NCBI GenBank assembly: GCA_002269645.1
Contig: NIVC01000440.1
Location: 124,001-188,000 of the forward strand
Reading direction: 5' to 3'
From: Macrostomum lignano
Taxonomy: Eukaryota
Length of the DNA: 64,000 nt
The position numbers and the translations under genes are program-made. Shown in pieces: positions 535 through 28,009 of the stretch; the first letter of the stretch is position 1; every line of letters begins with the position of its first letter. Below the pieces are notes generated by a model. The model made no database searches. It was given only the letters and a program-made list of their open reading frames with translations, and was not told the origin of the DNA.

Positions 535-2890
535 TCAGGTGCAGAACGCCTTGGACACGGTGCAGGCGTCGCAGACAACTCGAAACGGTTGCCGCAGCAG
601 CCGGCAAGTCTTCCTCTTGCACTCCGGATGCGTGCCCGGGTAAGTGACCGAGCGAACGCTGTACGGCCTGCCGCAGCACATCACGCTGCAGAGCACCTCC
701 CTGCGGTACTGGCTGCTGTCTTCACTTGGCAGGCCCTTGAGCAGGCTCTGACCGACAGGCGTGTTATCTGGGAGGCACTCCCTGTGACGGGTTAGGCAGT
801 GTGACAATGTTAGATTGTTGAGCAAGTTCAACTCAGCCTCGTACTAAACAAATGCATTGCATATGAGCCGTATGTATCAAGGACTACTCAAGTAGAAAGT
901 TTTCAAGCCTGGCGCACCTTCCATGCGTGACGGAGCAGTAATCCAGCGAGTGCTCATGAAATAGTAGAAGCGTCTTCTTTGGCAGCCCTTTGACAATCCG
1001 GTGACCAATGCATCGGGGACCAAGCGACAGCGGGTTCGTTGGCTGATGGTTACCGGAAGCGGCGCCCGGACAGAGCTCCTCGTATCCTGCGTAGCCTGAG
1101 CGATCGAATATGGCCCTGCGCATCTGGTGCTAGAAGTGAGGGACGGATTTTCGGAGGTGATCATAGCTGCGATTTCTAATGCAGAGTGACAAGAGCTGGA
1201 TCTCTGCATACAAATCAGTACAGATGCAGAGTGACAAGATCATAGAGCCCCGGATCTCTGCATGCGGATCAGTACAGATGCAGAGTGACAAGATCACAGA
1301 GCCCCGGATCTCTGCATGCCGATCAGTACAGATGCAGAGTGACAAGATCATAGAGCCGCGGATCTCTGCATGCGGATCAGTACAGATGCAGAGTGACAAG
1401 ATCACAGAGCCCCGGATCTCTGCATGCGGATCAGTACAGATGCAGAGTGACAAGATCACAGAGACCCGGATCTCTGCATGCGGATCAGTACAGATGCAGA
1501 GTGACAAGATCACAGAGCCCCGGATCTCTGCATGCGGATCAGTACAGATGCAGAGTGACAAGATCACAGAGCCCCGGATCTCTGCATGCGGATCAGTACA
1601 GATGCAGAGTGACAAGATCATAGAGCCGGATCTCTGCATACGGGTCAAGTCACAACTCCAAAACCGAAAAAAAACTATCACTATCACTCACCGTGTCATA
1701 AATTCGCATCAAAACGTCCAAAGGATTTTTTCCAGTCCTATGAAACAGACTGCCAGCCAGGAGCAGCGGCTTCTCCTGCTGCTGATTCTCCAGCTGCTGC
1801 CACCAGGAGCCTCCGACAGCTCCGTAGTGCAGCACTCGATGGCAGGTGCGCACAGAACAGGCTGCACTAGTGCCGTGGCATTTGCACCTCACTGCCTCGG
1901 CGTGTCGAGTCGCCCTTATCCCAACCTGATAGTTGTGACCGTTCACCAGTTCAGTGAACTGTTCGAAGGCTTCCTCTACTGGCACGTCTGTCGATGTTGA
2001 CGACCAAGAAGTCGTCTTCAAGCTTCGTCGAAGTCGGCCAATCGACAGGAATTTCCTGGCCAGACGGGTTCCAGCTCGAAGGCTCCTGTCGCAACCGTTG
2101 GACTTGAAACTGTCAAGCCGGAAGCCGGCGGGAAGTTTGGCAGCAAGCCAGCCAGGCGGCGCAACTGCAGCGGCCGCTGAACTCTGCTGACGGCCCTGGC
2201 ATGAGCACCGGCGGATGCGTCCTTTGGCGCACTCCCCCGCCATGGTGAGGGTCAGGACGAAGCCGGACAGAGCTCGGACCATGGCGTGCTCCGCTGTCAC
2301 TGGAATTGCATGAGGCTACATTTGCATACAACTGTGCTTTTGACTCAGCAGCTCAGCGGTAAACTAATCTGGCTCTCTCGGGCTGCGACCCCTGGTTCGA
2401 TTCAAGACGAAAATTGACCGATATAGGTTGTCGTTAGATTCACAACCCATGAGAGCCGACCACCAGGACACAGAGAGTGTATTTGCCTGACGATTAGCAA
2501 GTCAGGGCCGCTGTACGCCCTGTGTGAGCGAGTACATGAGTGCGTGCCTGCGTACGGTATTGACGAGTGTGTTGCTCGGGAATCATCGGAATGGGACGAT
2601 GTCGCCGAATACATGAAAATTTCAGCAGAACTTACGCGCTTGCAGCTCCGGCGACAGTCGCGGCAGCTGGTGCAACGAGCTGCAGTTCCAGCGGCAGTGC
2701 CGAAACTGCAGGCCGCACAGAGACACGGCGGCTTTGGCAGCTTCGGTCAGCGCTGTTAGTGCGGCCGGGCTCTGAGCCGATCGCTGGCAGAACCGCGCCT
2801 GAGCCCAGTTGAAGATCCGGTGCCGCCGCATAGCCGAGCAGGTCGGGGCGCTGCTGCTTGATGGCGGCCTGTCCAGCTTGTGCAGGGCTC
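535..2890 (-). CDS. wnt: Divergent Wnt-family ligand; exons ~2890-2636, 2299-1692, 1129-918, 781-535; 5' signal-peptide exon not located
   Basis: Spliced translation gives Wnt hallmarks: TC..Q..FC, CGLQFRHCRWNCS, CAKG..CSC, GC, HN..G, RCKCHGTSAACSVRTC, HSLDYC, THGREC, CSVMCCGRPY. All three introns (2300-2635, 1130-1691, 782-917) are GT-AG and phase-compatible. Confidence 0.9.
1179..1640. repeat. 54-bp tandem repeat (~8.5 copies) inside a Wnt intron
   Basis: Unit ATGCAGAGTGACAAGATCACAGAGCCCCGGATCTCTGCATGCGGATCAGTACAG; period 54; lies within intron 1130-1691. Confidence 0.95.
2342..2610 (+). mobile_element. tRNA-derived SINE, family A, copy 1 (in Wnt intron)
   Basis: A-box-like AGCTCAGCGG, B-box GGTTCGATTC; body (AAGTCAGGGCCGCTGTAC..TGTGTGAGC..TGCGTGCCTGCGT..GACGATGTCGCCGA) shared with 35228-35556 and 40528-40795. 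Confidence 0.75.
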
Positions 2891-3063
2891 TGAGCGCGCG
2901 ATGATGGGTCGAAAAGTTGAAAAATTAACATAAAAAAATTAATTTTACTGGGCTTCAGACAGATAATGATCAATTTATTTGTATCTGGGGGCAGGGGTGT
3001 CAAGGGAATTTCCGCATGCGGTGAGAGTGCTTCCAGGCGTAACCAAGATGTTTAATTGGAGGT

Positions 3064-3477
3064 GGTGCTGGCGCCCCTTGGTGCTAAAGCCCCTTGGTGC
3101 TAAAGCCCCTTGGTGCTAAAGCCCCCTTGGTGCTAAAGCCCCTTGGTGCTTAAGCCCCTTGGTGCTAAAGCCCCTTGGTGCTAAAGCCCCTTGGTGCTAA
3201 AGCCCCTTGGTGCTAAAGCCCCTTGGTGCTAAAGCCCCTTGGTGCTAAAGCCCCTTGGTGCTAAAGCCCCTTGGTGCTAAAGCCCCTTGGTGCTAAAGCC
3301 CCTTGGTGCTAAAGCCCCTTGGTGCTAAAGCCCCTTGGTGCTAAAGCCCCTTGCTGCTAAAGCCCCTTGGTGCTAAAGCCCCTGGTGCTAAAGCCCCTGG
3401 TGCTAAAGCCCCTTGGTGCTAAAGCCCCTTGGTGCTAAAGCCCCTTGGTGCTAAAGCCCCTTGGTGCTAAAGCCCCC
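3064..3477. repeat. 16-bp tandem array (GCCCCTTGGTGCTAAA)n, ~26 copies
   Basis: Direct inspection. Confidence 0.95.
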
Positions 3478-3949
3478 AATCAGAAAATTCTTGCCTCAAG
3501 CTATGAAGTCCCAAAGTAAAAATCCGAAACTTGTAAGTGAATTTTTTTCAATTTTTTGAGCGGAAAAATGCTTGAATAATCAAGCATATACAGTTATACT
3601 TACAGCCATTCGATTCCAAGGCAGTAATGTAGCTGAATTCCAATAGTTAAAAATATTATCAATAATTTTTGAGCAACAGTCATGTTGTTAGGCTTTGTTA
3701 TCTGTGTTATTTCGCAAGAAACACAAAGTTTTTTAAATCTGATTCACTCTCAGTTGCTTTGCGCTGTCTACGCAATGGTCAGCTTGCGAGGTATATATAT
3801 TCTTGGAAAATTATACGACCAATGGTGTCGGCGGCACTGCCTTTTGATCTCGCCGACTTGCTAGAATAGCACCTGAACAGTACGCCAAACTGTATAATTG
3901 CGCCCCCTCTCTTCTTCTTTGTGACGCTGCTTCTAAAAGAAGAAAACCT

Positions 3950-4200
3950 CGGACAAAGAGACAACCGTTTGCATGCGGTCAAAAGTTCCAATTTCGGAAT
4001 GGACACACGATCGCTATAGCCAGCTTCCAACTGGGAATGCTTCATCCAGCACAAGTGGTGTTCGGCCTGCGCCCTATTGGTTTTTGGTTTACGAACGCAA
4101 TAAATCATTTACTCGCTAAGGACGCGGGCCTCCGGGTTTAACGACTGAAGTCGCTGGGCCACGAGAGATGAAAGCTGCAGGAAGGTTAAATTTGCCGACT
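3950..4200 (-). pseudogene. Possible decayed BEL/Pao-type RNase H fragment
   Basis: Minus-strand RVSIPKLELLTAC resembles the BEL/Pao SIPRLEL motif; flanking similarity weak, upstream stop. Confidence 0.3.
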
Positions 4201-4396
4201 TTGAAAAGTAAAGCTTAAGTGGAGCGACGAAGGTCTGATTGCCCGCCTACGCAAAGTCATCTGGGAATCCGTGATTCTTTCTTTCTAATAAAGGCTGAGA
4301 CAGGTGTTAACTATATCTAAACTCAATTTTTTTTGTCTACACAAGAACCGGATCATACTTACGTGTATAACGTCTTATTGAGAGTTGAATGCCCAA

Positions 4397-4858
4397 GGTG
4401 CTGGCGCTGGCGCTCGGTGCTGGCGCCCCTTGGTGCTGGCGCCCCTTGGTGCTGGCGCCCCTTGGTGCTGGCGCCCCTTGGTGCTGGCGCCCCTTGGTGC
4501 TGGCGCCCCTTGGTGCTGGCGCCCCTTGGTGCTGGCGCCCCTTGGTGCTGGCGCCCCTTGGTGCTGGCGCCCCTTGGTGCTGGCGCCCCTTGGTGCTGGC
4601 GCCCCTTGGTGCTGGCGCCCCTTGGTGCTGGCGCCCCTTGGTGCTGGCGCCCCTTGGTGCTGGCGCCCCTTGGTGCTGGCGCCCCTTGGTGCTGGCGCCC
4701 CTTGGTGCTGGCGCCCCTTGGTGCTGGCGCCCCTTGGTGCTGGCGCCCCTTGGTGCTGGCGCCCCTTGGTGCTGGCGCCCCTTGGTGCTGGCGCCCCTTG
4801 GTGCTGGCGCCCCTTGGTGCTGGCGCCCCTTGCTGCTGGCGCCCCTTGGTGCTGGCGC
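4397..4858. repeat. 16-bp tandem array (GCCCCTTGGTGCTGGC)n, ~28 copies
   Basis: Direct inspection; shares 13-bp core with the 3064-3477 array. Confidence 0.95.
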
Positions 4859-6017
4859 TGGACCGCCCGCTGGTATACATGTATTTACATTTACATCAAA
4901 TATGGCACCACTGCAATCACGCATCACTTCATTACCCCAATATCGGGGATATTGGGGACATGTACTGCCCCAATATCGACTAAAATAAATACATGTACCG
5001 TATACATTCATTGAGCAAAATCCACATGCACCTTTTTCGATATAGACTTCACTTCAGCCAGGCCCTCCCATGCAGATCCCTTCTCTCTCCACTCATGCTT
5101 CAGCTCATCAATTTGATCCCCGCGCTGGTCACGACTCTGTCACCACCCCATACAGCAATCCGATGTTGGGGTTCGACGTACGTCAGCAACATGCGTGTAA
5201 ACATCCGCGTCGACGTTTAATTTCGACGTCTACACATGTACATGTAAAAGTAACATCTATTGACGCGGCTGGCAAATGGGTACTTTTGATCATGCAGTTC
5301 AGCGCTGCAGTTTCAGAAGTTTAATTTGTTTAACCATGCAGTCTCAATTACTGCCAAACTATAACCATGCATGTAAACTAACATAAAGTTAAAATTCGTA
5401 CAGTTTTAATTACATTTACACAAAACTATAGTGCTGATCATGGGTGGGAGTTTGCTTATACAATGAAAAACGTACGCTACGTACATGTACATGCATGTAC
5501 GTATGCAGTGTTAATTTCATCATTCACTAAACTGCTTTTGGCCTGATGAGAAAGTCAATTTTGAAAAAAACGAGTATATTTATGCCAGGTGTTGGGTCTA
5601 ACTACATGTTCGACTTACTCGTATCTTAATTACACTTTATATATGTACTCGACAATTGCATGTACATGCAGTGTACATGTACATTGCAATCTGCAGTTGC
5701 ATGAAAGAAAAACACAATCTCAACTTGCAAATTTTACAATTGACAATCTACAGCATCGTCTGTACTATTTCACATGCACATATATTTTAATTGAAAATTT
5801 TTGGGGTTTTTGCTGAACAGTGGCAGAATACTACTATAGTACCAATTGCAATTAGTCCGGGACTTTTGCAGGTTTTAGAAAAGTAACTGTAACGTACATC
5901 TAGAAGGAGCAGAATAGGACCAGAATGATTTGATCAAAACGCAGAGAAAACCGTCTTTATTAAAACAGCTCTTCTGCCGGCTCAGATCCTTTTACGAACT
6001 TCTAGTTTTCTTACTCC

Positions 6018-6881
6018 TGATGTGTTCCTTATTACCCGACTTTCGATAATCAAGGAACAATCAGTTCTAGCTCAACAGCTAGGCAACCCAGTTAGTCAAA
6101 CGAAGGTATTCAATTACCTTTAATCCGGATTTGAATTTCTTGAGTAGTTCTCGCTAGGAACTCGTCAGTAGATCTCGTAGATCAGGCGCCTTGATTCTTC
6201 AGTTGCTCTGGTCCTGGTTCCTCTTGTACTTCCGATAAATTCCTCCGGCCGGTATCTTCCGTCAGGACCAATCAGAGGCCTCGTATCAACAATGGGTACC
6301 CTGCGCCGAACAGCGGTTTGAATTAAGCCTCCTTCTTCTAGTAGTGCCTTTATGCACTCTAGGTATGGCTCCGGAAACCACTGATAGTCCTCTAAGATCT
6401 ATCAGGGGCAGTCCTTCTGGAGACTGCAACCAATGGAGTCTAAACAGACTCAAGAGTCTCAACAGACTCAAATAGACTCAAGTCTCAATAGACTTGAGCG
6501 AGACGTCTCTAACACAACGGGCGCAAATAAGGAAGGCTTACCGCAACAACTCGACCGAGTCTCGATTGACTTGGTAGATCAGGAAGTCCTCCTAAGGCTT
6601 CCTCTTCGGAGCGCTCCTCTTCCGTGGGGAGAATGACTCCGGTACCGCTTCAGATCGCTTGTATTTATAGGCAACTTTTTGCTCCAAAATAGCATCATTA
6701 CAATTCACGTGTTGCGCTAAAAGGGGAAAATGGCTCATGGCGTATTATTCTGGTAACATCTTTTCCTGGTAGCGTGATTCATTCAAAGCTTAGGCGCACA
6801 TGCGTGTACTTACTTACTTATAGTAGTATTATACGATTATCTTCTTTTTTTCTGTTTTTGCGGGAGGCAGAACACTCTACA
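6018..6881 (-). repeat. 3' LTR (864 bp)
   Basis: Matches 15743-16605 at offset 9725; differences seen are one G/C substitution (6064) and a 1-nt poly-T indel. Confidence 0.97.
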
Positions 6882-6884
6882 AAA

Positions 6885-6896
6885 TCTCCCTTTTTT
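6885..6896 (-). other. Polypurine tract AAAAAAGGGAGA
   Basis: Purine run 3 nt upstream of the TG start of the 3' LTR on the element's sense strand. Confidence 0.85.
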
Positions 6897-7009
6897 ACGA
6901 AAAAACTCGTCCCGAGTTTTAACAATAAAATAATAAAATTCTGTGGTGATCAGTTAATATAGGAAATAAACAATTGATTTTTTGCGCGTCTAGAGAAGCG
7001 AGGGTTTGG

Positions 7010-7444
7010 TCAAAACTCTAAAAACTTTTCAGTACATATTGCGGTCAAAACTCGAATATCGAGTAGACATCGAGTGGCATCAGGTTTGATACGACACCAC
7101 TTTCGAAACGTGCAGTCTCGCGGCATACTATTACATAAGGGGCATCCTATAATGCCCCTATTAGCGGTTTGCTTCAAACAGTGCATGCAAATAAAATGTT
7201 GGTGGTTACAATATTGAAACGTGCGCCAAGAATAACAATAGGCGCATTGTCGCAAACTATCTCTACAGAGGGGACAATTCTGCCATGGCTGAATATAGTG
7301 TGAATCACTTAAACATTGTCCGCAAACTTTATGTCCATTGATGCAAATAGTCGGTGGTTTGACAGCCAAGTCATCAGCTAAACATATCGGGCAGTCATAT
7401 AGCTGCTGAGGCTGGGGCGCCTGTTTCGACAGTGCGTTGCCCAT
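7010..7444 (-). CDS. Accessory ORF: 144-aa tandem double RING-finger protein with N-terminal myristoylation motif (MGNALSK)
   Basis: ATG at 7444; RING1 CPIC...CINGHKVCGQC...CPLC; RING2 CAYC...CNHQHFICMHC...CPLC; between pol stop and PPT, same strand as pol. Confidence 0.85.
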   Translation of the reverse strand: MGNALSKQAPQPQQLYDCPICLADDLAVKPPTICINGHKVCGQCLSDSHYIQPWQNCPLCRDSLRQCAYCYSWRTFQYCNHQHFICMHCLKQTANRGIIGCPLCNSMPRDCTFRKWCRIKPDATRCLLDIRVLTAICTEKFLEF

Positions 7445-7564
7445 AATTGTCGTCAATTTGTTGCTGTCTTTGTGTCGCTCGGATTAGTCGCCTTTTACGA
7501 CAAGCTTGCGAAGCTGTAGTGCTATTCTTTATCCCGGTCACTACACGGGGTTGTTCTCGAAACT

Positions 7565-10114
7565 TTAGCGTGGTCGTAGGTTGTAGCCATGTGGCTGGCT
7601 CACATCTGTCGTTTGAGTCTCCTCGTGCTTCGTCGCGATGTGGCGGTTCGTTGAACGCGTGCGATCGGCGTTGTCTAATGTCGGTAGAAACGTCGCCGTG
7701 TCAGTGTTGATCTTCTTCAGTCGATGAATGTGTACGTAGAACTGGTGCTGATGAGGATCTTGCACATTGGCCAGGCGCGCTGTTGTCGGTGACGTTAGTT
7801 GGACCACTCGATAGGGTCCTTTGTACTTCTGTGCATGTTTATGCGTCTGCTGTGGCGGGTAGTGCAGGTAGACGACGTCGCCGGCCGTCAGGGTTGTCGA
7901 TCTCGTGTCGTTGCCAGTGGTCAGAGCCACCTGGTTGTCAATATTGTGCTTGGCGATCTTCCATGCCAGGTGTAGTTGCGTGACGAATTTTTGAATGGAA
8001 GTCGGTACTTCCACGTACTGCGATGGTAGTAATTGCTGTGCGAGCAGATTTGGCGGCTGAAAGTCTCGTCCAAACATCAGGAAGAATGGCGTGTTGTCCG
8101 TTGATCGATGAATAGCACTGTTGTAGGCCATTGTTACAGATTGCAGGTAGATGATCCAGTCTTCCGGCTGTTGGTGCGCGAAATGTGTAATCATCTCGTG
8201 CAGGTTGCGGTGAAACCTTTCAACCATGTTCGCCTTCGGATTGTAGGTTGATGTGTAGATTTGCGTGATGTTGAGAATCTTTACTACTTGCTGAAACAGT
8301 TGCGATGTAAACTGCGATCCGTTGTCCGATGTGAGGTTCTTCGGCGTGCCGTACTTGCAAATGATTTCGTTGAAGAAACCCATTGCAACTGTCTGAGCTG
8401 TGATGTCCGGTATCGGTATGGCGATAGCAAACTTCGAGAAGATATCCAAGGCGGTTAAAATGTAGGTGTAGGCGATGCCCTGGAGGCAGCTCGGTGGCAG
8501 TGGTCCGGTGATGTCGATGCTTAGACAGTCCATTGTAGTGGACTTCGGAATGGACTGTAGCTGCGGTTTCTGTCGTCGTCCTGTCTTTGATGCAGCACAT
8601 GAATGGCAGTTGTTGCAATACTGCTTGATGTCGCCGTACATAGTTGGCCAAAAGTAGTATTGTTCCACTCTTGCAATGGTTTTGGCTGCCGACAGGTGTC
8701 CAGCGAGTGGGTTGTCGTGTAGCTCGTTGAGAATTGCTTGCCGAAACGAATATGGTATGTAGATCTTGGGTTTATTGTCGCTCATCCAGTAGAGCCGTGA
8801 CTTATTGATTGTTAGGTGTTGTCGTTGCTTGCGCAGGAATTTTCGTTCCATGGGACTGAGTTTGATGTTCTTGTCATCGTCTTTAACCGCTAGGTAGAAG
8901 TTGTCGCGCTCGGTTTCATCCACCAACTCTTTGATGTTAGGGATTGGGTGAATGGAGTTGACTTCATAGGCTCTTGACAGGGCGTCCGCGGCTTTGTTGG
9001 TAACTCCTGGTTTGTAGACGAGCTTGTAGTTGTAGTCCTGGATCTTGAGTGTCATCCTGATGAGTCGGTTGTTGGTCTGTCCTTTTGTAGTTACGACGTA
9101 GGTCAATGGTGCATGATCCGTGCGTACTATTGTCTGTATTGGAGAACCATAGATGTAGTAATGGAACTGTCGCAGAGCGAACAAGACTCCTAGTAGCTCT
9201 CGTTCCGTAGCTGACCACTTTGTCTCATTTGGTTTGAGTGCTCGACTGACATACGCAATAGGTCGTTCCTTCTTGTCCTCGGTTTCCTGTAGTAGGACTG
9301 CTCCGAGTCCCGTTCCTGAGGCGTCTGTCTCGATGATAAAGGGCTTGTCGAAGTCCGGATGCTGTAGCAGTGCGTCTGATGTCAGCTGTCGTTTGATTTC
9401 GTCGAAACTTTCTTGTTGTCTCTGTGTCCAGTTGTCTTGCTTCCATTTGTCGAACTTGAGCAGGTCGTACAGTGGCTTTGCTGTCTTTGCGAAGTTAGGT
9501 AAGAACTTCCTGAAGTATTGCGCAAGTCCAAGGAATGATTGGACCTTCGTTATACTGGTTGGCGTAGGAAACTTTTTCACCTTCTCTACGTTGTCTGGGT
9601 CCGGTGAAATTCCTTTGGCTGTCACTTGGTGTCCTAGGCAACGCACGTTGTCTCGGAAGAATTTGCACTTTGTCGGTTGCAGCTTTAGACCTTGGCGTTG
9701 AATGAGCGCTAGGGCCTTCTCCGTAGCTTCGTAGAGTCGCTCGAAATCCTCTCCGTAGGCTAAAATGTCGTCGACATAGTGCAGCAGGTTCGTGCATCCT
9801 GCTAGCATGTATGCTGTTAGTCGACTCATCGTTGCTGGGCTGTTGCTAAGTCCCATCGGCGATCGGTTGTACTCATAGACTTGTCCATTGTAGGTCTTGA
9901 AAGCCGTGTACTGTCGTGATTCTTTCTCGATTTCGATTTGCCAAAATCCATGACGTAGGTCGAACACTGTGAACAATTTTGCCGTGTTGAGCTTTGCTAG
10001 TAGTTCGGAGATCTTCGGTAGGCTTTGCTGATCCGTCGGTATGTACTTGTTCAACAGTCTGAAGTCGCATACGAGTCGTCTTTCGTTAGTCTCCTTCTTT
10101 GTACCAAGAGACAT
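7565..10114 (-). CDS. pol: Pol: RT, RNase H, integrase (joined to the upstream frame across a 1-nt frameshift at ~10098-10100)
   Basis: RRLVCDFRLLN, DLRHGFWQI, YVDD (9767-9778), TDASGTGLGAVL, ERELL, HHCC (H..GH...CHSC), SDNGSQF, ERFHR, KYKGPY. Confidence 0.95.
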   Translation of the reverse strand: MSLGTKKETNERRLVCDFRLLNKYIPTDQQSLPKISELLAKLNTAKLFTVFDLRHGFWQIEIEKESRQYTAFKTYNGQVYEYNRSPMGLSNSPATMSRLTAYMLAGCTNLLHYVDDILAYGEDFERLYEATEKALALIQRQGLKLQPTKCKFFRDNVRCLGHQVTAKGISPDPDNVEKVKKFPTPTSITKVQSFLGLAQYFRKFLPNFAKTAKPLYDLLKFDKWKQDNWTQRQQESFDEIKRQLTSDALLQHPDFDKPFIIETDASGTGLGAVLLQETEDKKERPIAYVSRALKPNETKWSATERELLGVLFALRQFHYYIYGSPIQTIVRTDHAPLTYVVTTKGQTNNRLIRMTLKIQDYNYKLVYKPGVTNKAADALSRAYEVNSIHPIPNIKELVDETERDNFYLAVKDDDKNIKLSPMERKFLRKQRQHLTINKSRLYWMSDNKPKIYIPYSFRQAILNELHDNPLAGHLSAAKTIARVEQYYFWPTMYGDIKQYCNNCHSCAASKTGRRQKPQLQSIPKSTTMDCLSIDITGPLPPSCLQGIAYTYILTALDIFSKFAIAIPIPDITAQTVAMGFFNEIICKYGTPKNLTSDNGSQFTSQLFQQVVKILNITQIYTSTYNPKANMVERFHRNLHEMITHFAHQQPEDWIIYLQSVTMAYNSAIHRSTDNTPFFLMFGRDFQPPNLLAQQLLPSQYVEVPTSIQKFVTQLHLAWKIAKHNIDNQVALTTGNDTRSTTLTAGDVVYLHYPPQQTHKHAQKYKGPYRVVQLTSPTTARLANVQDPHQHQFYVHIHRLKKINTDTATFLPTLDNADRTRSTNRHIATKHEETQTTDVSQPHGYNLRPR

Positions 10115-12399
10115 GGTGATGAGTATGCTGATATGGCTTTGCTAATGATGCCGTGTTTCAGCATTTTGTCGATAATCTCATCGAAGTGCTGTTGCAGATG
10201 CTTGGCGATCGGGTACGGCTTGCACTGAATTGGTTCCGTGTGCGGCAGAAGTTTGATTTCCTGTTTGATGTCCTTGGCTCGTCCGATGTCGTAGTCATGG
10301 TGGCAGAAAGCGTCGTTGTACTTCCACAACAGCTGTCGAACTTTCCTCTTTTGCTGTTCCGTAATCGGGCTGTCATCCAAATTGATCTTCTTTTGAAATT
10401 CTTCCTCTGTTAGTCGTGGAGTCGCTTGTTCAATCAGCATAACCGATGCCTGAGTGTTGAGATGACCGATGCACATTCCTTGCCGTAGATGAACCACTTC
10501 TGCGTTCGGGTTGAAGATTTGCACTGGCAGTTGCTTATCTTTTGCAACCAGCACTAGTGCCGTAGGCATCATGATTTGATGTTTTGCCGTAATTCTCCTG
10601 TGCGGATCAAATATCATTGCTTCATCTGCTGCGCTGGTCGCTTTCGCTCTGACCCAGCATGCGCTTTCAGGCTGGATGATGACATCTTGCTGCAGAGTTA
10701 CTTTCGGTAGTACTCGAATCTGGTTGATCAGTGGTTGCTCCACCGTGTCGATCCTAAATGTTTGCTTGTTGAAGTCGAAGGTCAATGGTAGTCGAAGCTG
10801 TTTGAACGTGTCTATTCCAACGATGACGTCTTGGTTTGGTAGTCTGTCGATGATGTACGTCGGGACCGTCAGCTGTTTATTAGCAATTTTCAAGTCAATA
10901 TCTGCTTTTCCTAGAATGTTGAGCGAATGTCCTCCTGCTCCTGCAACTGCGATTGCTGCTGGTCGTACCGCGAGTCGTAGCTTGTTGCATAATTGTTGCG
11001 AGATGACTGTGATCGAGCTGCCTGAATCCAGTAGTGCTCGACATGGCAAGTTGTTGACAATGACCTGAGCCATTGCTTTGCCAATCTCGGCGTGTAGCGT
11101 GCAGACGTAGTTTTCCGGCCATTTTGGCTCGTGTTGTTCAGGCTGATAAGTAGGTGGCTGCATTCTCGGTGCTGTTGGTGTTGTCGGAATCGATGGGTAC
11201 ATTCGCGTTGATGGTGTCGGCTGTCCTTGAGTTTCTTGTCGTGCATCCTCTGTCAATTCCAAGTTGTTGTCTTCTTCTCTTGGTGTCTTCTGCATGATGG
11301 CGTTCACTGTTCGTTTCGCTGTGGGACAAGTGTTGCTGAAGCATCGTACTATCGACGAGATGATAAAGATCGCCGTGACTATCCAAACAACGCAGGCGCT
11401 GTAGAAGATGAAGCCTTGATATAGGCTGCCTCTTCCGTTAAGCAGCTCCAAGAAGCTGTTTGTCCAAAACGATTGGATGGCGTTGTCCATCGACACAAGG
11501 ACCGGGAAATTGCGTGTTCCCGTTCCTTTATTCTTTCGTGTGAAGAGTTGACGAATCATCTTTCGTTGAGTGATGAACGCTTGCAAGAAGTCGTTGATGG
11601 TCCATCCTGGTGTTATTTCATCGAGTTGGATATCGGCGAATGGTGTGTACTTCGTTCTGTTGAACCGTATCTTCAGATCGTCCATGTCGTACGTTTCGTC
11701 GACTATCACTTCTGGTTCTGTGATGTTTGCTGTCGTTCCTGTTGTTTTAATGACATGTAGTGCATCGTCCAGTTGATAGTAGTTTGCTGCAGTGGTGCAA
11801 GGTCTTGGTATTGCGGTTCCAACGATGATGTTGTGTACCGTGTCCAAGAATCCTTGTATTCTTTTGCCTTCGTAGAATGCTTCAATTCTCGGCTTGTCGT
11901 AGCAAGTTGTTGAAGTGTTCGACGGTAAGATGTTGAAGTGCTGTATCGGCGTGCACTTGTATATCAGGAGATGTCCATATATCGGAATTGCCAGAACCTC
12001 TCTCATTCCAGTGATCTTGCGAAATGTCATCGTAGGGTTGACATAGTAGTTCTGTCTTGCGTAGTTCAAGTTGATTGCGTGCATTTTGCAAGTTAGCTGA
12101 ACCAGTGACCGATATAAGTGGTTTAGCTGGTTATGCAGGTTGTGATCCAGCGCCGTGATCTTTGCTGACAGTAGTAGGTTTGATACCAATCGTGGACGTT
12201 TTATGTCGCGTCGTTGCCTTTCTTGTTGTTGATACGTTCCGTTTATGATCGCCAGGAAGGTTCGTTTATCGTCATCCTTTACATAGACTGGTATTTCTTG
12301 CTCCGAGATGAATAGCGTCTTGTCCGTATTCTTGCATTTGAGTTCCTGTTCAACCGGCTTCTTTTGAAACGTCAAGGCCAAGTCTCCTGCTTTTGCCAA
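10051..12399 (-). CDS. Envelope C-terminal half + TM + cytoplasmic tail + aspartic protease + start of RT (same frame as gag)
   Basis: gB-like motifs, TM 11347-11412, protease ALLDSGS (DSG 11020-11028), RT N-terminus ending SAYSSPCLLV. Confidence 0.9.
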   Translation of the reverse strand: MAKAGDLALTFQKKPVEQELKCKNTDKTLFISEQEIPVYVKDDDKRTFLAIINGTYQQQERQRRDIKRPRLVSNLLLSAKITALDHNLHNQLNHLYRSLVQLTCKMHAINLNYARQNYYVNPTMTFRKITGMREVLAIPIYGHLLIYKCTPIQHFNILPSNTSTTCYDKPRIEAFYEGKRIQGFLDTVHNIIVGTAIPRPCTTAANYYQLDDALHVIKTTGTTANITEPEVIVDETYDMDDLKIRFNRTKYTPFADIQLDEITPGWTINDFLQAFITQRKMIRQLFTRKNKGTGTRNFPVLVSMDNAIQSFWTNSFLELLNGRGSLYQGFIFYSACVVWIVTAIFIISSIVRCFSNTCPTAKRTVNAIMQKTPREEDNNLELTEDARQETQGQPTPSTRMYPSIPTTPTAPRMQPPTYQPEQHEPKWPENYVCTLHAEIGKAMAQVIVNNLPCRALLDSGSSITVISQQLCNKLRLAVRPAAIAVAGAGGHSLNILGKADIDLKIANKQLTVPTYIIDRLPNQDVIVGIDTFKQLRLPLTFDFNKQTFRIDTVEQPLINQIRVLPKVTLQQDVIIQPESACWVRAKATSAADEAMIFDPHRRITAKHQIMMPTALVLVAKDKQLPVQIFNPNAEVVHLRQGMCIGHLNTQASVMLIEQATPRLTEEEFQKKINLDDSPITEQQKRKVRQLLWKYNDAFCHHDYDIGRAKDIKQEIKLLPHTEPIQCKPYPIAKHLQQHFDEIIDKMLKHGIISKAISAYSSPCLLVQRRRLTKDDSYATSDC

Positions 12400-13197
12400 A
12401 AACGTATTCGACAGTAGTCCTCCTTCAACTGTGTGATACTTTTGAAGCTTGCAGTCAATTTCCGGCTCTACTTCCCATGCGAAGAAATATTGTCATGACT
12501 TGTACGGTTCCTCATAGTGTGATTGTGCTCTGTGCTCAATCTGCCATCGATAGTCTTGATGATATGTTGGACTCAGTGGTAGACTGTGTAGTTCTTCCTT
12601 CCGTAGAATTGGTGTTGGACACCATCCTTCACTGTATCGACATTCGCTTAGTTGCAGCTGTAACGATTCCATTTTCTCGTACGGATTGTAGTAGAATGGA
12701 ATATTTCTGATCAAGTAGCTGTTGCGTGCCATATATTCTTTCCATTTTCCGAAGAAGTGAATGTATCGACCGTTGGCTGAATTCTTTGTTCTGAACAGCT
12801 GTGCGTTGCCGACCTTCTCATCTGGTTCCAGTTCACCATCCCTTTAAAATAGTGTTTGATTCCATTGTAGGCATTCCGCGTGCGACACATGTAGCTCATG
12901 TTGTTTGAATCGGATCCGGTTCCATTGTCCGCGCCAAACTTTTTCCACCAGGTGCTTGTCTCTGAAGCATACTATTCCGTGTTGTCGATGCTTCTTGATG
13001 TTAGCCTTGTAGAGATCGAGTGTAATCTTCTTTGGTTTCGTCTGGTTTGTCTTGAAGTAGCTGCATTTGATGTCGGTTGGTATCTTGTAGATCATCGGTT
13101 GGATATGCGCATCCGTTGGACAAATCATTGGTTTTTCCGTTGCCGTTGCTTTGGCGACTACTGCTATCAGTAGTATCACGATGATCCAGTATAGCCA
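11347..13197 (-). pseudogene. env: Envelope glycoprotein (class III fusion protein, herpes gB / chuvirus G-like), two in-frame stops in this copy
   Basis: Signal-like WLYWIIVILLIAVVAKA (13147-13197), cysteine-rich ectodomain, six N-x-S/T sequons, RQRR site (12208-12219), C-terminal TM; stops at 12844-12846 (TAA) and 12493-12495 (TGA) with the frame unchanged. Confidence 0.8.
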
Positions 13198-15030
13198 GTT
13201 TTTCCACTTCTTGGACCTTGCCGTTGTCTTTGCTGGCATTGGCCGCGATCGCCATTCGTTATCTTCCATGTCCGCATCATATCCTTCCGGTTGTTCCATT
13301 GGCTGTTTCAGGCGGAAGACTTCTGATTCGCTTTGCCTTTTGGTTATTTCATTATCTTCGTCTGCGGCTTCTTCCGATGTTTCCGTTGTTTCACTCCATT
13401 GCGTTTGGTATCTTTTCTCTGTCTTGTAGTCGACCGTTTGAATATAGGCTTCACCATTTCGTTTGTATCGGATCTCGTAGCATTCGTCGCTGTCGGAACT
13501 CGGCTTTTCTTTCATCTGTTCTTTTTCCATTTTTTCATCTTTCCATTGTATTTCGTAGCCTTGATCGCTGTCGGAACTTAGATTTTCCGCTCTCAGTTCT
13601 TCCTGCATTCCTCTTTCGGCTCGGTATCCGTTCGTGTCATCACGCACCTCGCAGTCGTGATCGTTGCCGTAACTCCTACATTCTTCTTCTTCTTTCATTT
13701 CCTTGTCTTTCATGCTCGTTTTGTCGTCATCCACTGTTGTCGATTCATAGTTGTTTTCTCTGCCGGTCTCCATCTTTTCTTCGTTACCGATGTCGCTCTC
13801 CGCCTCCTCCCTTTTCTTGTGATTTACTTTCTTCCTGTTTTCTCTGCTGTCTCCGGTGGTCTCTTTTAATTTGATCATTTCGGTTTCATTCGCCTCTTCC
13901 GTGTTGTCAGTGTTGTCCTCGTGCGTCGTCTTCTTTTCGATCAAGCTGATGTCAAGTTCCGGGACTGTGAAGTCCATTTCCAAGTCGTCAATTGTGAACA
14001 CTTGCTGTTCTTGCTGTTCATTTTCCGGTGTGTACGTGATGGCATTCGCGTATCGTGGCATTGCTTGCGTCGGCTGTCTTTGTGTGTATCTGGCGTTGCG
14101 TGGCCTGTAGCCATCATTTCTGAAGCGACCGTCATTTCCGTAGCGGCCATCATTTCCGAAGCGGCCATCCTTTCCGAAGCGTCTCATGTCTTGTTGGCGA
14201 TTTTGATATTGCTGCCATGGTTTCTGCGGCTTTTGATTGTTGAATGTCTGTCGTGGCTTGTCGTATCTTGTCGACCAATGGGGACAATTAATCTGATAAT
14301 GTCCTTCTCGTCCGCAGTAGTAACATCTGGCTGAGGCTCGTTCATTTCGTCTTTTTTGTTCGGCGATAGCAGCTGTCTGGTGCTGCATTAATTTGTTTAA
14401 TTGCTGCGTCAGTTTCTGCACTTCATTGTTGCCTGTCGTCATTAATGGGGCACTGGCTTCCCATTGCATTCCGCAACGCAAAAGGTCTTCTTCGGTTTCG
14501 ATATTTTCACGCAAAAGTCTATCCCGAAGTGACGGCTGTGCGTTGTTTATTACGTGCAGGATTAGGTTTTGTTCGCGATCCATCAATCGCTGTCTTTCTC
14601 TGGCGGCCAATTCTGCTGCTCCCAGTGGCGGTTGGTCCGCAGCTTGCAACGGTGGCTGATGCAGTGCCTTAATTATCTGGCGGATATCGTCCACAAAGGC
14701 GAGGAAGGATTCTGTTGCTTGCATCCTTCTGTTATGTAACTTGTGCAGCAGCACTGATCTGTTTGTGCCGCAACGGTTGAAATGCGCGCGCAGTTGAATG
14801 ATTAGTGCTGGATAATTTTGCTGTGTTGCCGCATCCAGCTTGCCGTAAATTTCTCGCGCAGTACCTTGGAGAAGAGGTGGCAGCAGCTGTGCCTTCTCTG
14901 GATTTTCTAGGTTGTATTCCCTACATACCAGGTCAAAATGGTCGACAAATGTGTTAAAATCTTTCTCCATCGAGAAGGTACCGACCGTTTCTTTGATGTC
15001 TCTGTGTACCGTTGGATTGCGCCGCGCCAT
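12844..15030 (-). CDS. gag: Gag (capsid + CCHC zinc knuckle) fused in frame to an acidic spacer and the envelope N-terminus
   Basis: Ty3-type capsid segment (F..F...C...LL..LL.G.A..Y..L...Y..L...L..HF), CYYCGREGHYQINC at 14284-14325. Confidence 0.92.
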   Translation of the reverse strand: MARRNPTVHRDIKETVGTFSMEKDFNTFVDHFDLVCREYNLENPEKAQLLPPLLQGTAREIYGKLDAATQQNYPALIIQLRAHFNRCGTNRSVLLHKLHNRRMQATESFLAFVDDIRQIIKALHQPPLQAADQPPLGAAELAARERQRLMDREQNLILHVINNAQPSLRDRLLRENIETEEDLLRCGMQWEASAPLMTTGNNEVQKLTQQLNKLMQHQTAAIAEQKRRNERASARCYYCGREGHYQINCPHWSTRYDKPRQTFNNQKPQKPWQQYQNRQQDMRRFGKDGRFGNDGRYGNDGRFRNDGYRPRNARYTQRQPTQAMPRYANAITYTPENEQQEQQVFTIDDLEMDFTVPELDISLIEKKTTHEDNTDNTEEANETEMIKLKETTGDSRENRKKVNHKKREEAESDIGNEEKMETGRENNYESTTVDDDKTSMKDKEMKEEEECRSYGNDHDCEVRDDTNGYRAERGMQEELRAENLSSDSDQGYEIQWKDEKMEKEQMKEKPSSDSDECYEIRYKRNGEAYIQTVDYKTEKRYQTQWSETTETSEEAADEDNEITKRQSESEVFRLKQPMEQPEGYDADMEDNEWRSRPMPAKTTARSKKWKNWLYWIIVILLIAVVAKATATEKPMICPTDAHIQPMIYKIPTDIKCSYFKTNQTKPKKITLDLYKANIKKHRQHGIVCFRDKHLVEKVWRGQWNRIRFKQHELHVSHAECLQWNQTLF

Positions 15031-15729
15031 GTTGTTGATAGGATAGAACGGTAGTTCAAGATCTGGATCGATTTGTAACGGATCGTCCAGTGTGGTGCTT
15101 GCCTCGGAATAAACCTCGACTGTAACGAATTGCCTTGCGGTGTCGATCTGTTATTCGCTGGCCTCGAAGTTGCGGCTTGCTGCCACTGGTTGTCCTCAAA
15201 TGAACTTGTTCTGTTCGCTTGCTGATTTCGCACTTATGCGGCGTCCCGCAAAGTGTATCTTCAAGTTGAAGTGGGCTTTGTCTTCTTGCTTTGCAAAGTC
15301 TTTTTTCTCTTCTTTGACTTTCTCTCTTTGTCAATTAACTCCGCTCTTCACGAAGTTTCAATTAATTTCGGTTTTGTTTTAGTTTTTGTGCCGGCAAAAT
15401 GTTTCAGTTATTTTTTTGTTTGTTTTGCGTCGATGATTCTTTTGTTTTCGGTTTGTTTTCAGTGTACCGACGAAGTTAATTTCGGTTTTGTTTTAAACTC
15501 ACACTTGCTCGAGCTCGTCAAAACAAAATTTTTACACGCGTGCTCAACTGTACTCAAATTTGACAGGTGCTCAAACCTGTACACCAAAATTTACTCGAGT
15601 TTCAAAACGTAACGGACTTAAAAAGTGTTAACTCTAACATGTGCGCGCAAAATTAATGAAGTCGCTCTGTCGTCACTTTACAATAGCTTGGCCAGGCTAT
15701 TGCTCAAATTTTGAGTAGTGCCGAGAGGG

Positions 15730-15740
15730 CGAGATCACCA
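15730..15740 (-). other. Primer-binding site TGGTGATCTCG
   Basis: TGG-initiated, 2 nt downstream of the 5' LTR end; pairs with a tRNA-Trp-type 3' end if two G-U wobbles are allowed. Confidence 0.7.
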
Positions 15741-15742
15741 AT

Positions 15743-16605
15743 TGATGTGTTCCTTATTACCCGACTTTCGATAATCAAGGAACAATCACTTCTAGCTCAA
15801 CAGCTAGGCAACCCAGTTAGTCAAACGAAGGTATTCAATTACCTTTAATCCGGATTTGAATTTCTTGAGTAGTTCTCGCTAGGAACTCGTCAGTAGATCT
15901 CGTAGATCAGGCGCCTTGATTCTTCAGTTGCTCTGGTCCTGGTTCCTCTTGTACTTCCGATAAATTCCTCCGGCCGGTATCTTCCGTCAGGACCAATCAG
16001 AGGCCTCGTATCAACAATGGGTACCCTGCGCCGAACAGCGGTTTGAATTAAGCCTCCTTCTTCTAGTAGTGCCTTTATGCACTCTAGGTATGGCTCCGGA
16101 AACCACTGATAGTCCTCTAAGATCTATCAGGGGCAGTCCTTCTGGAGACTGCAACCAATGGAGTCTAAACAGACTCAAGAGTCTCAACAGACTCAAATAG
16201 ACTCAAGTCTCAATAGACTTGAGCGAGACGTCTCTAACACAACGGGCGCAAATAAGGAAGGCTTACCGCAACAACTCGACCGAGTCTCGATTGACTTGGT
16301 AGATCAGGAAGTCCTCCTAAGGCTTCCTCTTCGGAGCGCTCCTCTTCCGTGGGGAGAATGACTCCGGTACCGCTTCAGATCGCTTGTATTTATAGGCAAC
16401 TTTTTGCTCCAAAATAGCATCATTACAATTCACGTGTTGCGCTAAAAGGGGAAAATGGCTCATGGCGTATTATTCTGGTAACATCTTTTCCTGGTAGCGT
16501 GATTCATTCAAAGCTTAGGCGCACATGCGTGTACTTACTTACTTATAGTAGTATTATACGATTATCTTCTTTTTTCTGTTTTTGCGGGAGGCAGAACACT
16601 CTACA
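15743..16605 (-). repeat. 5' LTR (863 bp)
   Basis: Near-identical to 6018-6881; followed on the sense strand by the PBS. Confidence 0.97.
16387..16394 (-). promoter_or_regulatory. LTR TATA box TATAAATA (copy at 6662-6669)
   Basis: Consensus TATA on the element's sense strand ~210 nt into U3. Confidence 0.65.
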
Positions 16606-20100: not shown

Positions 20101-23100
20101 TGATTGTTAATTCACTCTTGCAATCAATGGATAAAATATTACTTATTTTTTACTAATTTGTAATGTGCAATCTATGAAGTTTTAAAATCATAAAGTAGAA
20201 CTAAAAATGTTACAGGTCTGTAACTAAAAAGGTTCAAAGTTTTTCAATTGATTTGAGCAATTTTGGTATATTGTATCTGAAAATAATATGGGCTTTGCTT
20301 TATTGGGTCAAGTTTTTATACAAGTTAGAACTTTTTGGTATAATTATTCTTTTACATTCACTGGTCAGCTTGACCGACTAGTCGGAAGCTACTATTAGAT
20401 TCTTTACCAATTTATGATAGTTCTCAGCTGTTATGTTGCTTAAGATTTTATTGAAAACTTTGGTAAAAGTATCCCATGTAGCTCTTTTTAGATAGATTAG
20501 TCATCAGTGTCTCTCATTAGTTGCTAGACTTGGGAGCCATTAAATATACTAGCCTTTAGTTTCTTCTCAGTGAGTACAACATTATTGAAGCATTATCCTT
20601 GCTTATTAAGTACATTTGTAAACTGCTTGATAAGGCCCAGTTTTATATGTAGTTGTGGGAACAATATCTTGTTGCAATTGACTAATGGCTCATGGATGAC
20701 ATGTGCAAGGCTTTAGACACTCTTTGGCTGCACTTTTAAAATTTTTTGTCTATTTATTGCTCAACTGCACAAAAAGCAAGGATACTTGCTTTAGTTTGAC
20801 TATAAGCCCAGTAAAAATGAACCATCTTTAAATCTATGCATATGATCCATTCATGATCACAGTATGGCTATTTTTAGCAGAACACACTTGATGTCATTAT
20901 TGTTTCTTCAGTGTTATCCAATCGTCCAGAGGTATTGATGGATAATATTGCTATTATATAGGTATAGCAGTATAAATTTCAGAGTCCTTGCTACAGTCAA
21001 TATAAAGCTGCCAGTCCAATGCTTCTATACCAATCTTTTTAAAGCCCAGGCATATCTATACAAAGCACAAGGTTTTTCTATTGCACAAAAAATTCTAAAA
21101 TTTATCCTGTCTAATTCAAAATGCTATTATCCAAGCAGGCCCTTTACCAAAACGGTGCTTTGACTTCAGCCTAGAAAGCAACAGTGCACTAGCTTATTAG
21201 GATAAATAAAAGTCATGGACCAAGTTGTTCAATTTACCTTGAAAGAAGAGCTGACGTGGGGTACTCTTGTCTGCAGGCAAATAGATGTTATTATCACTAG
21301 CTGCATCATCAACTGAGTTGCTGATTTACTGCAGCCTAGCATAAACTGGCACCAGAATTTCTTCATAGTGAGGGACTGGTCAACACACAATTTCGAGATC
21401 AAGATACATGAGTATATGGTGATTGCAAATTGTTTCAGTTAATGCCAAGTCAACACTAGGCCACAGACTACATAGAAGTGGCAGCAGTTGCAGTAGTGGT
21501 CTAGTGGATCATAAATGGATATTCATACTTTATATGACCCTTAGAAGCAGTGGTGTGATTCAGGCGCGAAAATGGCGCGAATGCGCGAATCCTGGAGGTC
21601 TGGCGCGAAATTTTGTGGAACCATGGGCGCGAAAATTGCATTCTTATTTTCTGCTTTTTACACTTATTCTCTTGTCAGACAGTATGAAATACAAGAATGT
21701 CATAGCTTAGGAGATTAATCCCGAGAATTTCGAGATTCGTGGAGAATTTCGTGGTCGCAAAGAAGCAAAGTGACACTGAAGATGTGGCTGCTACGTCTGC
21801 AAGGGCGGCAGAGATCAGATGTGTTGTCAGGATTGCACTAAGAATCGCAGCTTCGAGTCAGAAGAGGACCTTGCCGAGGATCTGATGGCCATTTGCCCAG
21901 ATTCAAAGATTCCACCCAACATCGCCAACAAGAAGTTCAGGCGGGACACGGCTGGGACTTGAGAGACATGTTAATTGGTAGCCAGACGCATCTTCAAAAG
22001 TGTCATCAATTGACTTATTTGGCTGTCAGTAGAATATCATTGGCATGGCGCGAAAATTTTCAGTCGGCGCAAAATTTGGCAAACTTTCCAATCACACCAC
22101 TGCTTAGAAGGAGCAAACAAACTCTTGGAGCCATTTGTTTATTAGTTGTTAGTTGTTTATTTGTTAGTAGACAAAAAGGCAATTGATAAAATCATGTCAC
22201 ATTTTTTATTCATTTATTATTAAAATATAGTTGGTTATCTAGCCTAATGAAAAAAGAATTTGGCTTATATAATTGTGAATATAATCTTTCTATTTAATCC
22301 CAACTCTAATTTGCCAACATTATATTAGGAAAAATAACTGCTTATTTTAGCCCACAGACATCATGTTATATCAATTTTTTATTATCCTCTCTTATTTAAA
22401 CATTGGAACCATAATGCCATTTGGCATCTTGGGTCCAAATTCAAATGCCAAATAAAAACAGGTTGCTACCATCAGAGCATTACTTAAAGAGTGAAATTCT
22501 AGCATCTTTTCCATACCCTTTTACCTTGCTAGAATAAACTTGTCAGTATAAGCTAATGTAAATTATTATTATATAAAATGCTTCATCTTTGTACTCAATC
22601 ATGTTAGCTGGCGACTGGCTGCAAGGCCCCTACGTGTACGCCCTCTATGAGCACTACAAGCTGTCCAAGCGGGACATTGAGTTCCTATTCGTTGCCGGAT
22701 TCGGAGCCAGCATGCTGTTTGGCACTGTTGTCGGCTCTTTTTCCGATAAATTTGGTCGCCAACGTAACTGCATTCTGTATGGCATTATCTACAGCTTGTC
22801 CTGTCTGACTAAGCACTCCAGCAATTTCTGGGTACTGTTGCTAGGCAGGTTGCTAGGCGGCACAGCTACTAGTATACTGTGGAGTGGCTTTGAAACCTGG
22901 CTGATACACGAGCATCATAGTAGAGGCTACAGCGATAGGCTACTAGAAGAGATTTTTAGTTGGGCCACTATCGGCAATAGCATCGTAGCCATTGTGTGCG
23001 GCGTTGCTGCCCAATACGCTGTAGACCTATTCGGCTTTGTTGCTCCATTCGATATGGCTCTGATCATTCTAGTCATTATGACCGTCATTGTTTGGCTCAA

Positions 23101-23709
23101 ATGGCCGGAAAACTACGGCGATGCCAGTGCAGATTTGAAGAAGAACTTCTCTGACGCTTTGACAACTGTGCGCACTGATAGGAGAGTCTTGTGTCTGGGC
23201 GTTGTACAGTCCCTGTTCGAGGGCAGCATGTACTGCTTTGTACTGGAATGGACTCCGGCATTGACTCCGTCTGCTGCCTGTGAGATATTCTTACTTTTTT
23301 TGAAGGGGGCGGATTTAGTCATTTCTATTAAACATCTGTCTCGTAATATAAATATAACTTCCTCACCATTGCTCTTCTTCATCTTATCATCCGTTTTTTC
23401 ACAATTTGCTTTCCATCATGCGCTCAAACTCAATCAGAGTCTGATCCTTTTAATATCTTAAGTCCCTCAATTAACTTTTCCATGCCCTGTTCTTTCCCAT
23501 TTCTTATTCGTCTCCCTCTCCTGACCTTCCTCTCCCTCTCCCTCTCCCCTGTCCCTTCTCTCTCCATCTCCCTTTCCCTCTCTCCCACTCTCTCACTCTC
23601 CCTCTCTTTCCCTTTCTTCTTCATCTCTCCCTCTCTCTCACTCTACCTCTCCCTCTCTTTCTCTCTTCCTCATCTCTCCCTCTCTCTCACTGTCTTTCTC
23701 TTTCTCTTC

Positions 23710-23777
<68 letters not shown>

Positions 23778-25500: not shown

Positions 25501-26371
25501 ACCTGAACTAAATAGTTTTTTAAGAACGATTTTCATAGGCTTATGGTATAGGATAAGCAGGTCACGTGCCACAGTGCGTGTTTCTTACCTTGTCTTATTT
25601 TATGTGGGCTAGCTATCCTATATGATTTCTAAGATTTTCTTTGTTTTCTAAACATTCTTTTGCTTGAGTTTTTATTGTTAATAAATAAACGTTTGCTTCT
25701 AACTGAAGAATGAGACTTTATTAAGACAGACAGATGGAATGATTGTCTGATAGTTGTAAACTAAATAACCAATATTTAATATTATATGGTATCATCAGTG
25801 CCTGGTATATATTCTACTATAAATATCACAGTGTGATAATTGTGACATTCCATTACGTCTGTTAGTTTTTGTTAAAATAACGTTTTTAATAACCTGCCTA
25901 TCAATATTACGGTAACTTATTATATTTTTTGTTTAAAAAATCATCACGTCCTTAGTTAGCTACTCATGAGTATGCGGAAAGTAGTATAACATGTGAATTG
26001 GCTGAACGGGTAATAGAGAAATTTTTAAATTAGCGCTAATGTAATCGGAATTGGCATACCCTATGCACACCCTATACACGCTGTCATTTTTTCTGTTTAG
26101 CTAGATTTTGTAGTTTCACGTTATTAATAGTATGTTAAAATTCACGTGTGTTGTTTATTGCCGCGTGTGCGCTCTTTATTTGTATATTGTTTCATTTTCT
26201 AACGAACTATCAAAACGTTGGAGTTTTTACGTTTTTTTCTTTAAGTGAGTTTTTGCTGCTCTTAGTAATGCCTTAATAAAATCGTTCTGAAAAATTGACT
26301 TTTGAGATAATTTAACCTTTTAATTTTAAGTCCGGAATCACCTTTCAGCTAGTACTCAGAAGTATAGCCCA

Positions 26372-27893: not shown

Positions 27894-28009
27894 TCGATAA
27901 ATCGATAGCAACATCAGTTGAAGCTTTGCCAACCCTCATTGCAGCGCAGTTGCAGACCGCTCACCACGCTACATATGTACTAAAAGCCACTTACCTATCT
28001 AAATACGCA

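Follow-up and report, generated by a model that had tools for sequence, protein, structure and literature searches.

In the errantiviruses of Drosophila (gypsy, ZAM) and in vertebrate retroviruses, the env gene is placed 3′ of pol and expressed from a spliced RNA, the envelope protein is an F-type or class I fusogen, and the late domains reside on Gag. The subject of this report is a long terminal repeat (LTR) retroelement of a different layout, found in a 64,000-nucleotide (nt) stretch of the genome of the flatworm Macrostomum lignano (GenBank assembly GCA_002269645.1, contig NIVC01000440.1, positions 124,001 to 188,000 of the forward strand; this whole stretch is called the window, and all coordinates refer to it). 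The element occupies positions 6018 to 16605 on the minus strand and carries env between gag and pol. Certain non-canonical endogenous retroviruses (ERVs) of nematodes reportedly have one continuous gag-env-pro-pol open reading frame (ORF), whose env resembles that of nyamiviruses, as well as additional ORFs, and the reverse transcriptases (RTs) of these NERVs are said to form a monophyletic clade. On that account the single polyprotein, too, would already have been published. For the nematode ERVs, the placement of ENV before POL in a metavirus that had captured the glycoprotein of an RNA virus was described by Sacco et al. [quoted passage not shown] In the main text of PMC13524379 the GAG-ENV-POL elements are stated not to be monophyletic, the words "polyprotein", "frameshift" and "fused" do not occur, and the transmission of gB-type errantiviruses outside Drosophila is treated in the discussion as an open question.

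A preliminary description of the locus, made from the letters and their reading frames, had read it as a gypsy element encoding a single Gag-Env-Pol polyprotein and had proposed a candidate lineage of infectious invertebrate retroviruses. As a description of the element it was accurate, and the feature is real. The proposal of a novel lineage does not survive: the GAG-ENV-POL layout is already known, from a described clade and a matching listed element (main text and Supplementary file 1 of PMC13524379), and since both the layout and apparently the same family are in print, the finding as first posed is a rediscovery. The interpretation as a whole is partly supported. In this family Gag, a fusogen assigned by its predicted fold to class III, and Pol share one reading frame and are each subject to purifying selection; the element also has an accessory RING ORF of 144 codons (7010–7444) and a set of motifs in the Env tail, both of which the preliminary description missed.

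The element and its listed counterpart

The element is bounded by LTRs of 863 nt at its 5′ end (15743–16605, minus strand, as are all of its features below) and 864 nt at its 3′ end (6018–6881), which differ, in a blastn alignment of 864 columns, by a single substitution and a single gap (862 columns identical). Both LTRs end in TG..CA, and four identical bases flank the element as a 4-bp target-site duplication; the near-identity of the LTRs indicates that the insertion is recent. As in Ty3/gypsy elements (Metaviridae), a primer-binding site (PBS) that starts with TGG lies 2 nt internal to the 5′ LTR (15729–15740), a polypurine tract (PPT) adjoins the 3′ LTR (6885–6896), and the Pol domains follow one another, by their Pfam matches, as protease (PR), RT, RNase H (RH) and integrase (IN). 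Compared with solved structures, the RT matched Ty3 best (E 5e-60; the next entries were at 3e-41 and 5e-34) and was closer to Ty3/gypsy than to other solved RTs, with no BEL RT among the 12 matches. The element is best taken as a recent copy with slight damage, from a multicopy Ty3/gypsy family of GAG-ENV-POL type, an "errantivirus" in the operational sense with a gB-type Env.

Supplementary file 1 of PMC13524379 lists an element, Platyhelminthes_Rhabditophora_Mlig_errantivirus_2, whose LTRs are given as 0-863 and 9727-10591, and which has a gB-type Env and 16 copies. It agrees with the window element in LTR length (863 nt), in span (10,591 nt as against 10,588 nt here), in the 12-mer of the PBS, in the type of its Env and in being multicopy, and differs from it in that the window copy is interrupted by two stops and one frameshift. 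This is a match of geometry, PBS and host label, and not of alignment, and by LTR length, span and PBS the family in the window is very probably Mlig_errantivirus_2. Database proteins that are 94% identical over the matched part of env are labelled Macrostomum lignano. Word searches for related work gave PMC13524379 as the sole relevant paper; one on Cer1/CERV (PMC10309623), judged by passages from it, was set aside as not relevant to this element.

Gag, Env and Pol in one reading frame

The frame that opens at ATG 15030 extends over 1,659 codons, with stops at codon 729 (12844–12846) and codon 846 (12493–12495), and encodes in turn a CCHC knuckle, a spacer, a hydrophobic stretch, an ectodomain, a second hydrophobic stretch, a tail, a protease and the start of the RT. 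Frame, hydropathy and Pfam matches (zf-CCHC, Monjiviricetes_fusion, aspartyl protease, RVT_1, RNase H and integrase) all bore out the domain order and the two stops that had been described, and RT, RH and IN do continue after a slip, in a second frame (7565–10141, YVDD at 9778) that a single frameshift near 10,100 parts from the upstream frame in the window copy. The capsid region of Gag (14356–15030, from the ATG) is placed by position, by constraint and by the gag domains of homologues, of which P0046, P0049 and P0054 have Ty3_capsid or Retrotrans_gag upstream of env; Pfam gave no capsid match in the window copy itself. A single CCHC zinc knuckle follows as nucleocapsid (14284–14325; zf-CCHC E 0.0013, below the cut-off), and then a spacer of about 350 aa, RG-rich at first and acidic thereafter, with 24% D/E (13210–14268; ratio of nonsynonymous to synonymous differences, pN/pS, 0.35). 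Only two stretches of the frame are strongly hydrophobic: a signal-like one at codons ~608–634, which holds the putative internal signal sequence or signal anchor (13147–13209), with a basic flank upstream of the hydrophobic core and small residues where cleavage would probably occur, and one at codons ~1203–1235, the predicted transmembrane helix (11344–11415). The aspartyl protease, with its DSG motif, lies at 10801–11070 (Pfam E 4.9e-10).

The ectodomain between the two hydrophobic stretches (11425–13146) had been described as Cys-rich and about 570 aa long. It measures 574 aa, contains both stops of this copy, and has 12 Cys in 574 aa, so that the epithet calls for a small qualification. 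Pfam matched it to Monjiviricetes_fusion at E 7.9e-6 and 24.5 bits, below the 27-bit cut-off, and a single-sequence search of solved structures gave no match below E 0.38. Searched against the whole protein library with both stops read as X, env found 55 homologous proteins at E 0.001 or better, and a profile built from the query and 43 of these reached herpesvirus gB at E 1e-15. An AlphaFold2 model of Env (mean predicted local distance difference test score, pLDDT, 79; predicted template modelling score, pTM, 0.55) has a 46-residue central helix, and its best match in PDB was HSV gB (E 3e-21, template modelling score ~0.47); among viral folds the best was Beihai rhabdo-like virus 3 G (E 2e-25), with Nyavirus midwayense G at E 7e-25. 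By the modelled fold, Env is a class III (herpes gB/nyamivirus-G-like) fusogen, held, as in the GAG-ENV-POL errantiviruses, between a signal or transmembrane stretch and a transmembrane helix. A furin-type RxRR (12208–12219) falls in a low-confidence loop of the model, before the long central helix.

The layout recurs well beyond this family. Among the 55 homologues the N-terminus of env was matched in 36, in 30 of which a hydrophobic stretch lies just upstream; for 27 of these it is internal, at a distance of over 100 residues from the start of the protein. A knuckle upstream of the signal was found in 20 homologues and a protease motif downstream of env in 14, and the same order of knuckle, signal, env and protease, which the preliminary description had proposed to look for elsewhere, was present in one protein in 10 of the 55 (including P0012, a chimeric model of the window family). 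Six long relatives with this order have RTs 32–40% identical to that of the window element. That the signal and transmembrane layout is retained in homologues of about 25% identity indicates that the two-helix layout is old and conserved.

Three of the homologues deserve a word of their own. P0014 (2,852 aa, labelled Macrostomum lignano) represents a second family, with knuckle, signal, env, transmembrane helix, PR, RT, RH and IN in one predicted protein, and is 29% identical to the window element in env and 40% in RT. In the predicted protein P0057 (1,438 aa) domains of NADAR and poly(A)-polymerase-like type precede the env homologue, and P0024 (2,266 aa) has aspartyl-protease matches both upstream and downstream of env, its ectodomain being preceded by two hydrophobic helices.

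Within the species, a search of genome G000 with the env segment gave at least 40 matches (92 candidates), all of 85–100% identity, and 19 of the 40 were checked across the whole coding span. Env was at the same place in 19/19, a sample chosen by its env match, in which sisters without env would be missed. One of the 19 has an uninterrupted natural frame of 2,498 codons from capsid to integrase, in keeping with the ORF of about 2490 codons that repair of the window copy had predicted. The frame is open from knuckle to env and from env to protease in 14 of the 19 each, from protease to RT in 12 and from RT to integrase in 10, and the two stop sites of the window copy are open in 17 and 13 sister copies, respectively. 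Over 20 copies there were 83 non-triplet indels, with no 20-nt bin affected in more than four copies and only one indel inside a homopolymer run of 4 or more, so that an origin in homopolymer errors found no support; the load was 0–22 per copy, mostly losses of single bases, a pattern that long-read error would explain no less than decay. Since the indels are scattered over the copies, the family has no conserved stop or programmed shift, and a programmed frameshift between domains was ruled out, there being no junction broken in most copies. Pooled pN/pS was 0.028 for the capsid, 0.091 for env, 0.057 for PR, 0.015 for RT and 0.062 for IN, with RH within 0.015–0.062 (the pairs of copies are non-independent). 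The single Gag-Env-Pol frame is thus a trait of the family, as had been supposed; the copies checked, chosen by env, all carry it, and breaks between gag, env and pol are scattered rather than retained. The family has multiplied recently, and several of its copies are clustered on contigs G000:C2121, C1130, C87 and C2447, which might be tandem arrays or piRNA-cluster-like regions.

These data also bear on the reading of env as an insertion nested in a single copy, a dead passenger or a chimera of the assembly, with which it would agree that both stops of the window copy lie inside env, and that env and the tail diverge more among copies (p-distance 0.062 and 0.131) than the flanking enzymes (0.012–0.031). 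Most of this excess is synonymous, as it would be under recombination between subfamilies. With env in every copy checked, its pN/pS at 0.09 and the same order at 32–40% RT identity, such an origin is extremely improbable, and the sister copies, the selection and the distant homologues rule it out in practice.

Env tail, RING gene and the rest of the window

The cytoplasmic tail, about 70 aa between the transmembrane helix and the protease (11131–11343), carries three late-domain-like motifs in a span of at most 20 residues: YPxI (11188–11202), PTAP (11167–11178) and PPxY (11146–11157), which we take to be of the ALIX, TSG101 and NEDD4 types, respectively. PTAP and PPxY are confined to the tail within the two frames of the element. 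A survey of 28 loci, scanned in three frames, left 24 distinct sister copies after the removal of four duplicates; YPxI was present in 24/24, PPxY in 23/24 and PTAP in 22/24, with four different residues at the free position of PPxY. Outside its motifs, the tail is the most divergent of nine regions among the sister copies (pN/pS 0.30). A tail could be defined in 33 of the 55 homologues, and seven of these have a strict late-domain motif, where shuffling predicts 1.2 (and gave 5 at most in 1,000 shuffles), at a density of 2.6 per 1,000 residues in tails and 0.21 elsewhere. The tail of P0014 has PSAP and LYPTL.

The accessory ORF near the 3′ LTR was identified by Pfam and by sister copies as encoding two RING-like units behind an MGxxxS N-terminus. 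Among 18 sister copies the MG start is kept in 17 and Ser at position 6 in all 18, a pattern that is myristoylation-like by motif only, and pN/pS is 0.36. No homologue was found at E 0.001 among four candidates of similar length. Its matches among solved structures were cellular RING E3s, and arenavirus Z ranked 14th in the Atlas ranking (0.87), a weak lead; kinship with Z found no support, as Pfam gave no zf-P11 match and the structure matches were the cellular proteins. Across genome G000 the RING gene has at least 150 scored matches among 217 candidates, in length variants of ~90, 124, 144 and 181 codons. Some copies are followed, after another ~600–700 nt, by a second and only distantly similar RING gene (e.g., G000:C282:132197 and 132927). 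The gene thus behaves as an accessory cassette that changes fast.

Read together, the tail motifs and the myristoylation-like RING ORF suggest, on sequence grounds, budding driven by the Env tail. Tail late-domain motifs, ESCRT (endosomal sorting complexes required for transport) and a RING ORF with a myristoylation-like start were not found in the text of PMC13524379 that was examined, and a library search on late domains in retrotransposon tails listed general retrovirus reviews only; the figures of PMC13524379, Sacco et al. (2022) and subscription papers may cover them. Both features may be unreported so far.

Elsewhere in the window, several frames resemble host genes by eye: a membrane-transporter-like gene of MFS type, split by a CT-rich intron (22577–24266, plus strand), a 539-codon frame with a Schlafen/AlbA-2-like motif (27839–29458, plus), and frames resembling a secreted EGF-type protein (36038–39160, plus), a C-type lectin (41171–41947, plus), a CAP-domain protein (45892–46494, minus) and a C2H2 zinc-finger protein (53126–55462, plus). 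There are many minisatellite arrays with units of 16–54 nt (1198–5000, 24315–30028, 43579–46855 and 57358–64000), and several long "ORFs" inside them are repeat artefacts.

Expression, membrane topology and known systems

Taken as a whole, the element is best explained, in our view with somewhat better than even probability, by a single polyprotein with a two-helix topology, matured by its own protease and budding as an enveloped particle by means of the Env tail. By the rules of standard translocation into the endoplasmic reticulum (ER), Gag would be synthesized in the cytosol, whereupon the ribosome would be directed to the ER by the internal hydrophobic helix and the ectodomain would be threaded into the lumen, until the second helix stopped transfer and left the tail, PR, RT, RH and IN in the cytosol. 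Signal peptidase would free the N-terminus of Env, with Gag remaining membrane-bound through the signal helix, to which a long acidic leash would join it; the ectodomain loop would be cut by a protease of furin type; and on the cytosolic side the element's protease would set free capsid, nucleocapsid and the enzymes of Pol. Membrane targeting would thus come from the signal helix, Gag having no myristoylated matrix domain, and the scission signals would be the YPxI, PTAP and PPxY of the Env tail, recruiting ESCRT. An enveloped particle would result, which would pass between cells of one animal, e.g., from soma to germ line or stem cells. As a model of membrane topology this is plausible.

Several points weigh against it. 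The topology was read from Kyte-Doolittle hydropathy, and not from a trained predictor. The homologues are predicted proteins, some of them maybe spliced models, and P0012 is clearly chimeric. Fully open copies number 1 of 19, and the breaks in the rest may be decay or assembly error. The strict late-domain motif is absent from 26 of the 33 homologue tails, so that the tail signal is not universal; in addition, the motif set was picked after the window tail had been viewed, and the homologues that match it are related. Moreover, the ratio of Gag to Pol in a 1:1:1 product is far below that employed by retroviruses, which makes a further source of Gag likely, and the fixed Gag:Env:Pol stoichiometry that had been put forward is doubtful.

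The last point leads to a reading in which one DNA frame gives several RNAs, spliced or early-polyadenylated, so that soluble Gag or Gag-Pol is in excess, stoichiometry is not fixed, the Env polyprotein is a minor product and replication is mostly intracellular. Single-frame LTR elements often obtain an excess of Gag by splicing or by turnover of Pol, and the 3′ RING ORF requires its own RNA or reinitiation, so that a second RNA probably exists. The retention of the internal signal and the in-frame junctions across homologues of ~25% identity speaks for the long product instead. No GT-AG joint was among the joints listed for contigs of four runs, a weak point, as nine further joints lay outside that list and contigs drop rare forms. 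The runs, moreover, are only guessed to be RNA, and their contigs do not count as evidence either way on expression. Joints 12955→12491 and 12422→7550 did occur, in contigs of runs X5 and X7 (two studies) and not in X1 or X16; their ends are not GT-AG, and they are therefore read as a deleted derivative or divergent relative and not as introns. Spanning most of env and all of pol, they possibly mark a non-autonomous derivative made of gag plus RING. On balance, we consider the several-RNA arrangement unlikely, if far from negligible.

The signal helix could also escape cleavage, in which case Env would be a loop with two anchors and Gag-Env-Pol one chain until the element's protease cut it on the cytosolic side. 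It is known that internal signals far from the N-terminus can do so. Moreover, some gB-type ectodomains are flanked, according to the main text of PMC13524379, by two transmembrane domains rather than by a signal peptide and one, which also counts against the preferred topology. In the window element and in many homologues, however, the hydrophobic core is followed by small residues (A, S, G, T or C) and then by a conserved P-x-x-C start of the ectodomain, as expected for a cleaved signal. Solved class III fusogens, moreover, have a free N-terminus. An uncleaved anchor is accordingly improbable.

Within the single-polyprotein reading, a further and more tentative suggestion, to which we give well under even probability, is that budding is inverted: Gag would be held at its C-terminus by the signal helix, the late domains would sit on the Env tail that carries Pol, and a myristoylated double-RING protein would help. 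Only polyproteins that had delivered both fusogen and enzymes might then drive scission, with the RING protein acting, by analogy with arenavirus Z, as a matrix-like or ubiquitin-ligase helper. If true, this would be a logic undescribed for retroelements, and an enveloped, cell-to-cell-transmitted retroelement could be observed in a laboratory flatworm. More generally, the element would combine polyprotein processing in the style of positive-strand RNA viruses with budding driven by a glycoprotein tail, and with its two-helix topology, tail motifs, variable RING gene, near-identical LTRs and laboratory-animal host the locus offers a concrete, testable model.

How the element stands among known systems can be put as follows. 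Like the non-canonical nematode ERVs of Sacco et al. (2022), it has ENV before POL, and the top viral fold matches of its Env include a Nyavirus G; it differs in the phylum of its host, and the GAG-ENV-POL elements are not monophyletic by the account of PMC13524379. With Drosophila errantiviruses and vertebrate retroviruses it shares LTRs, PBS, PPT, a CCHC Gag, PR-RT-RH-IN and a fusogen, and it departs from them in the place of env, in the class of Env and in the candidate carrier of the late domains. The polyprotein of flaviviruses consists of a capsid, an internal signal helix, a lumenal glycoprotein (a class II fusogen), a stop-transfer helix and cytosolic enzymes, including a protease. The order of capsid, signal, glycoprotein, stop-transfer helix and enzymes is the same in the window element, a likeness of working and not of homology, for the element is reverse-transcribing and its fusogen, by its modelled fold, is of class III and not class II.

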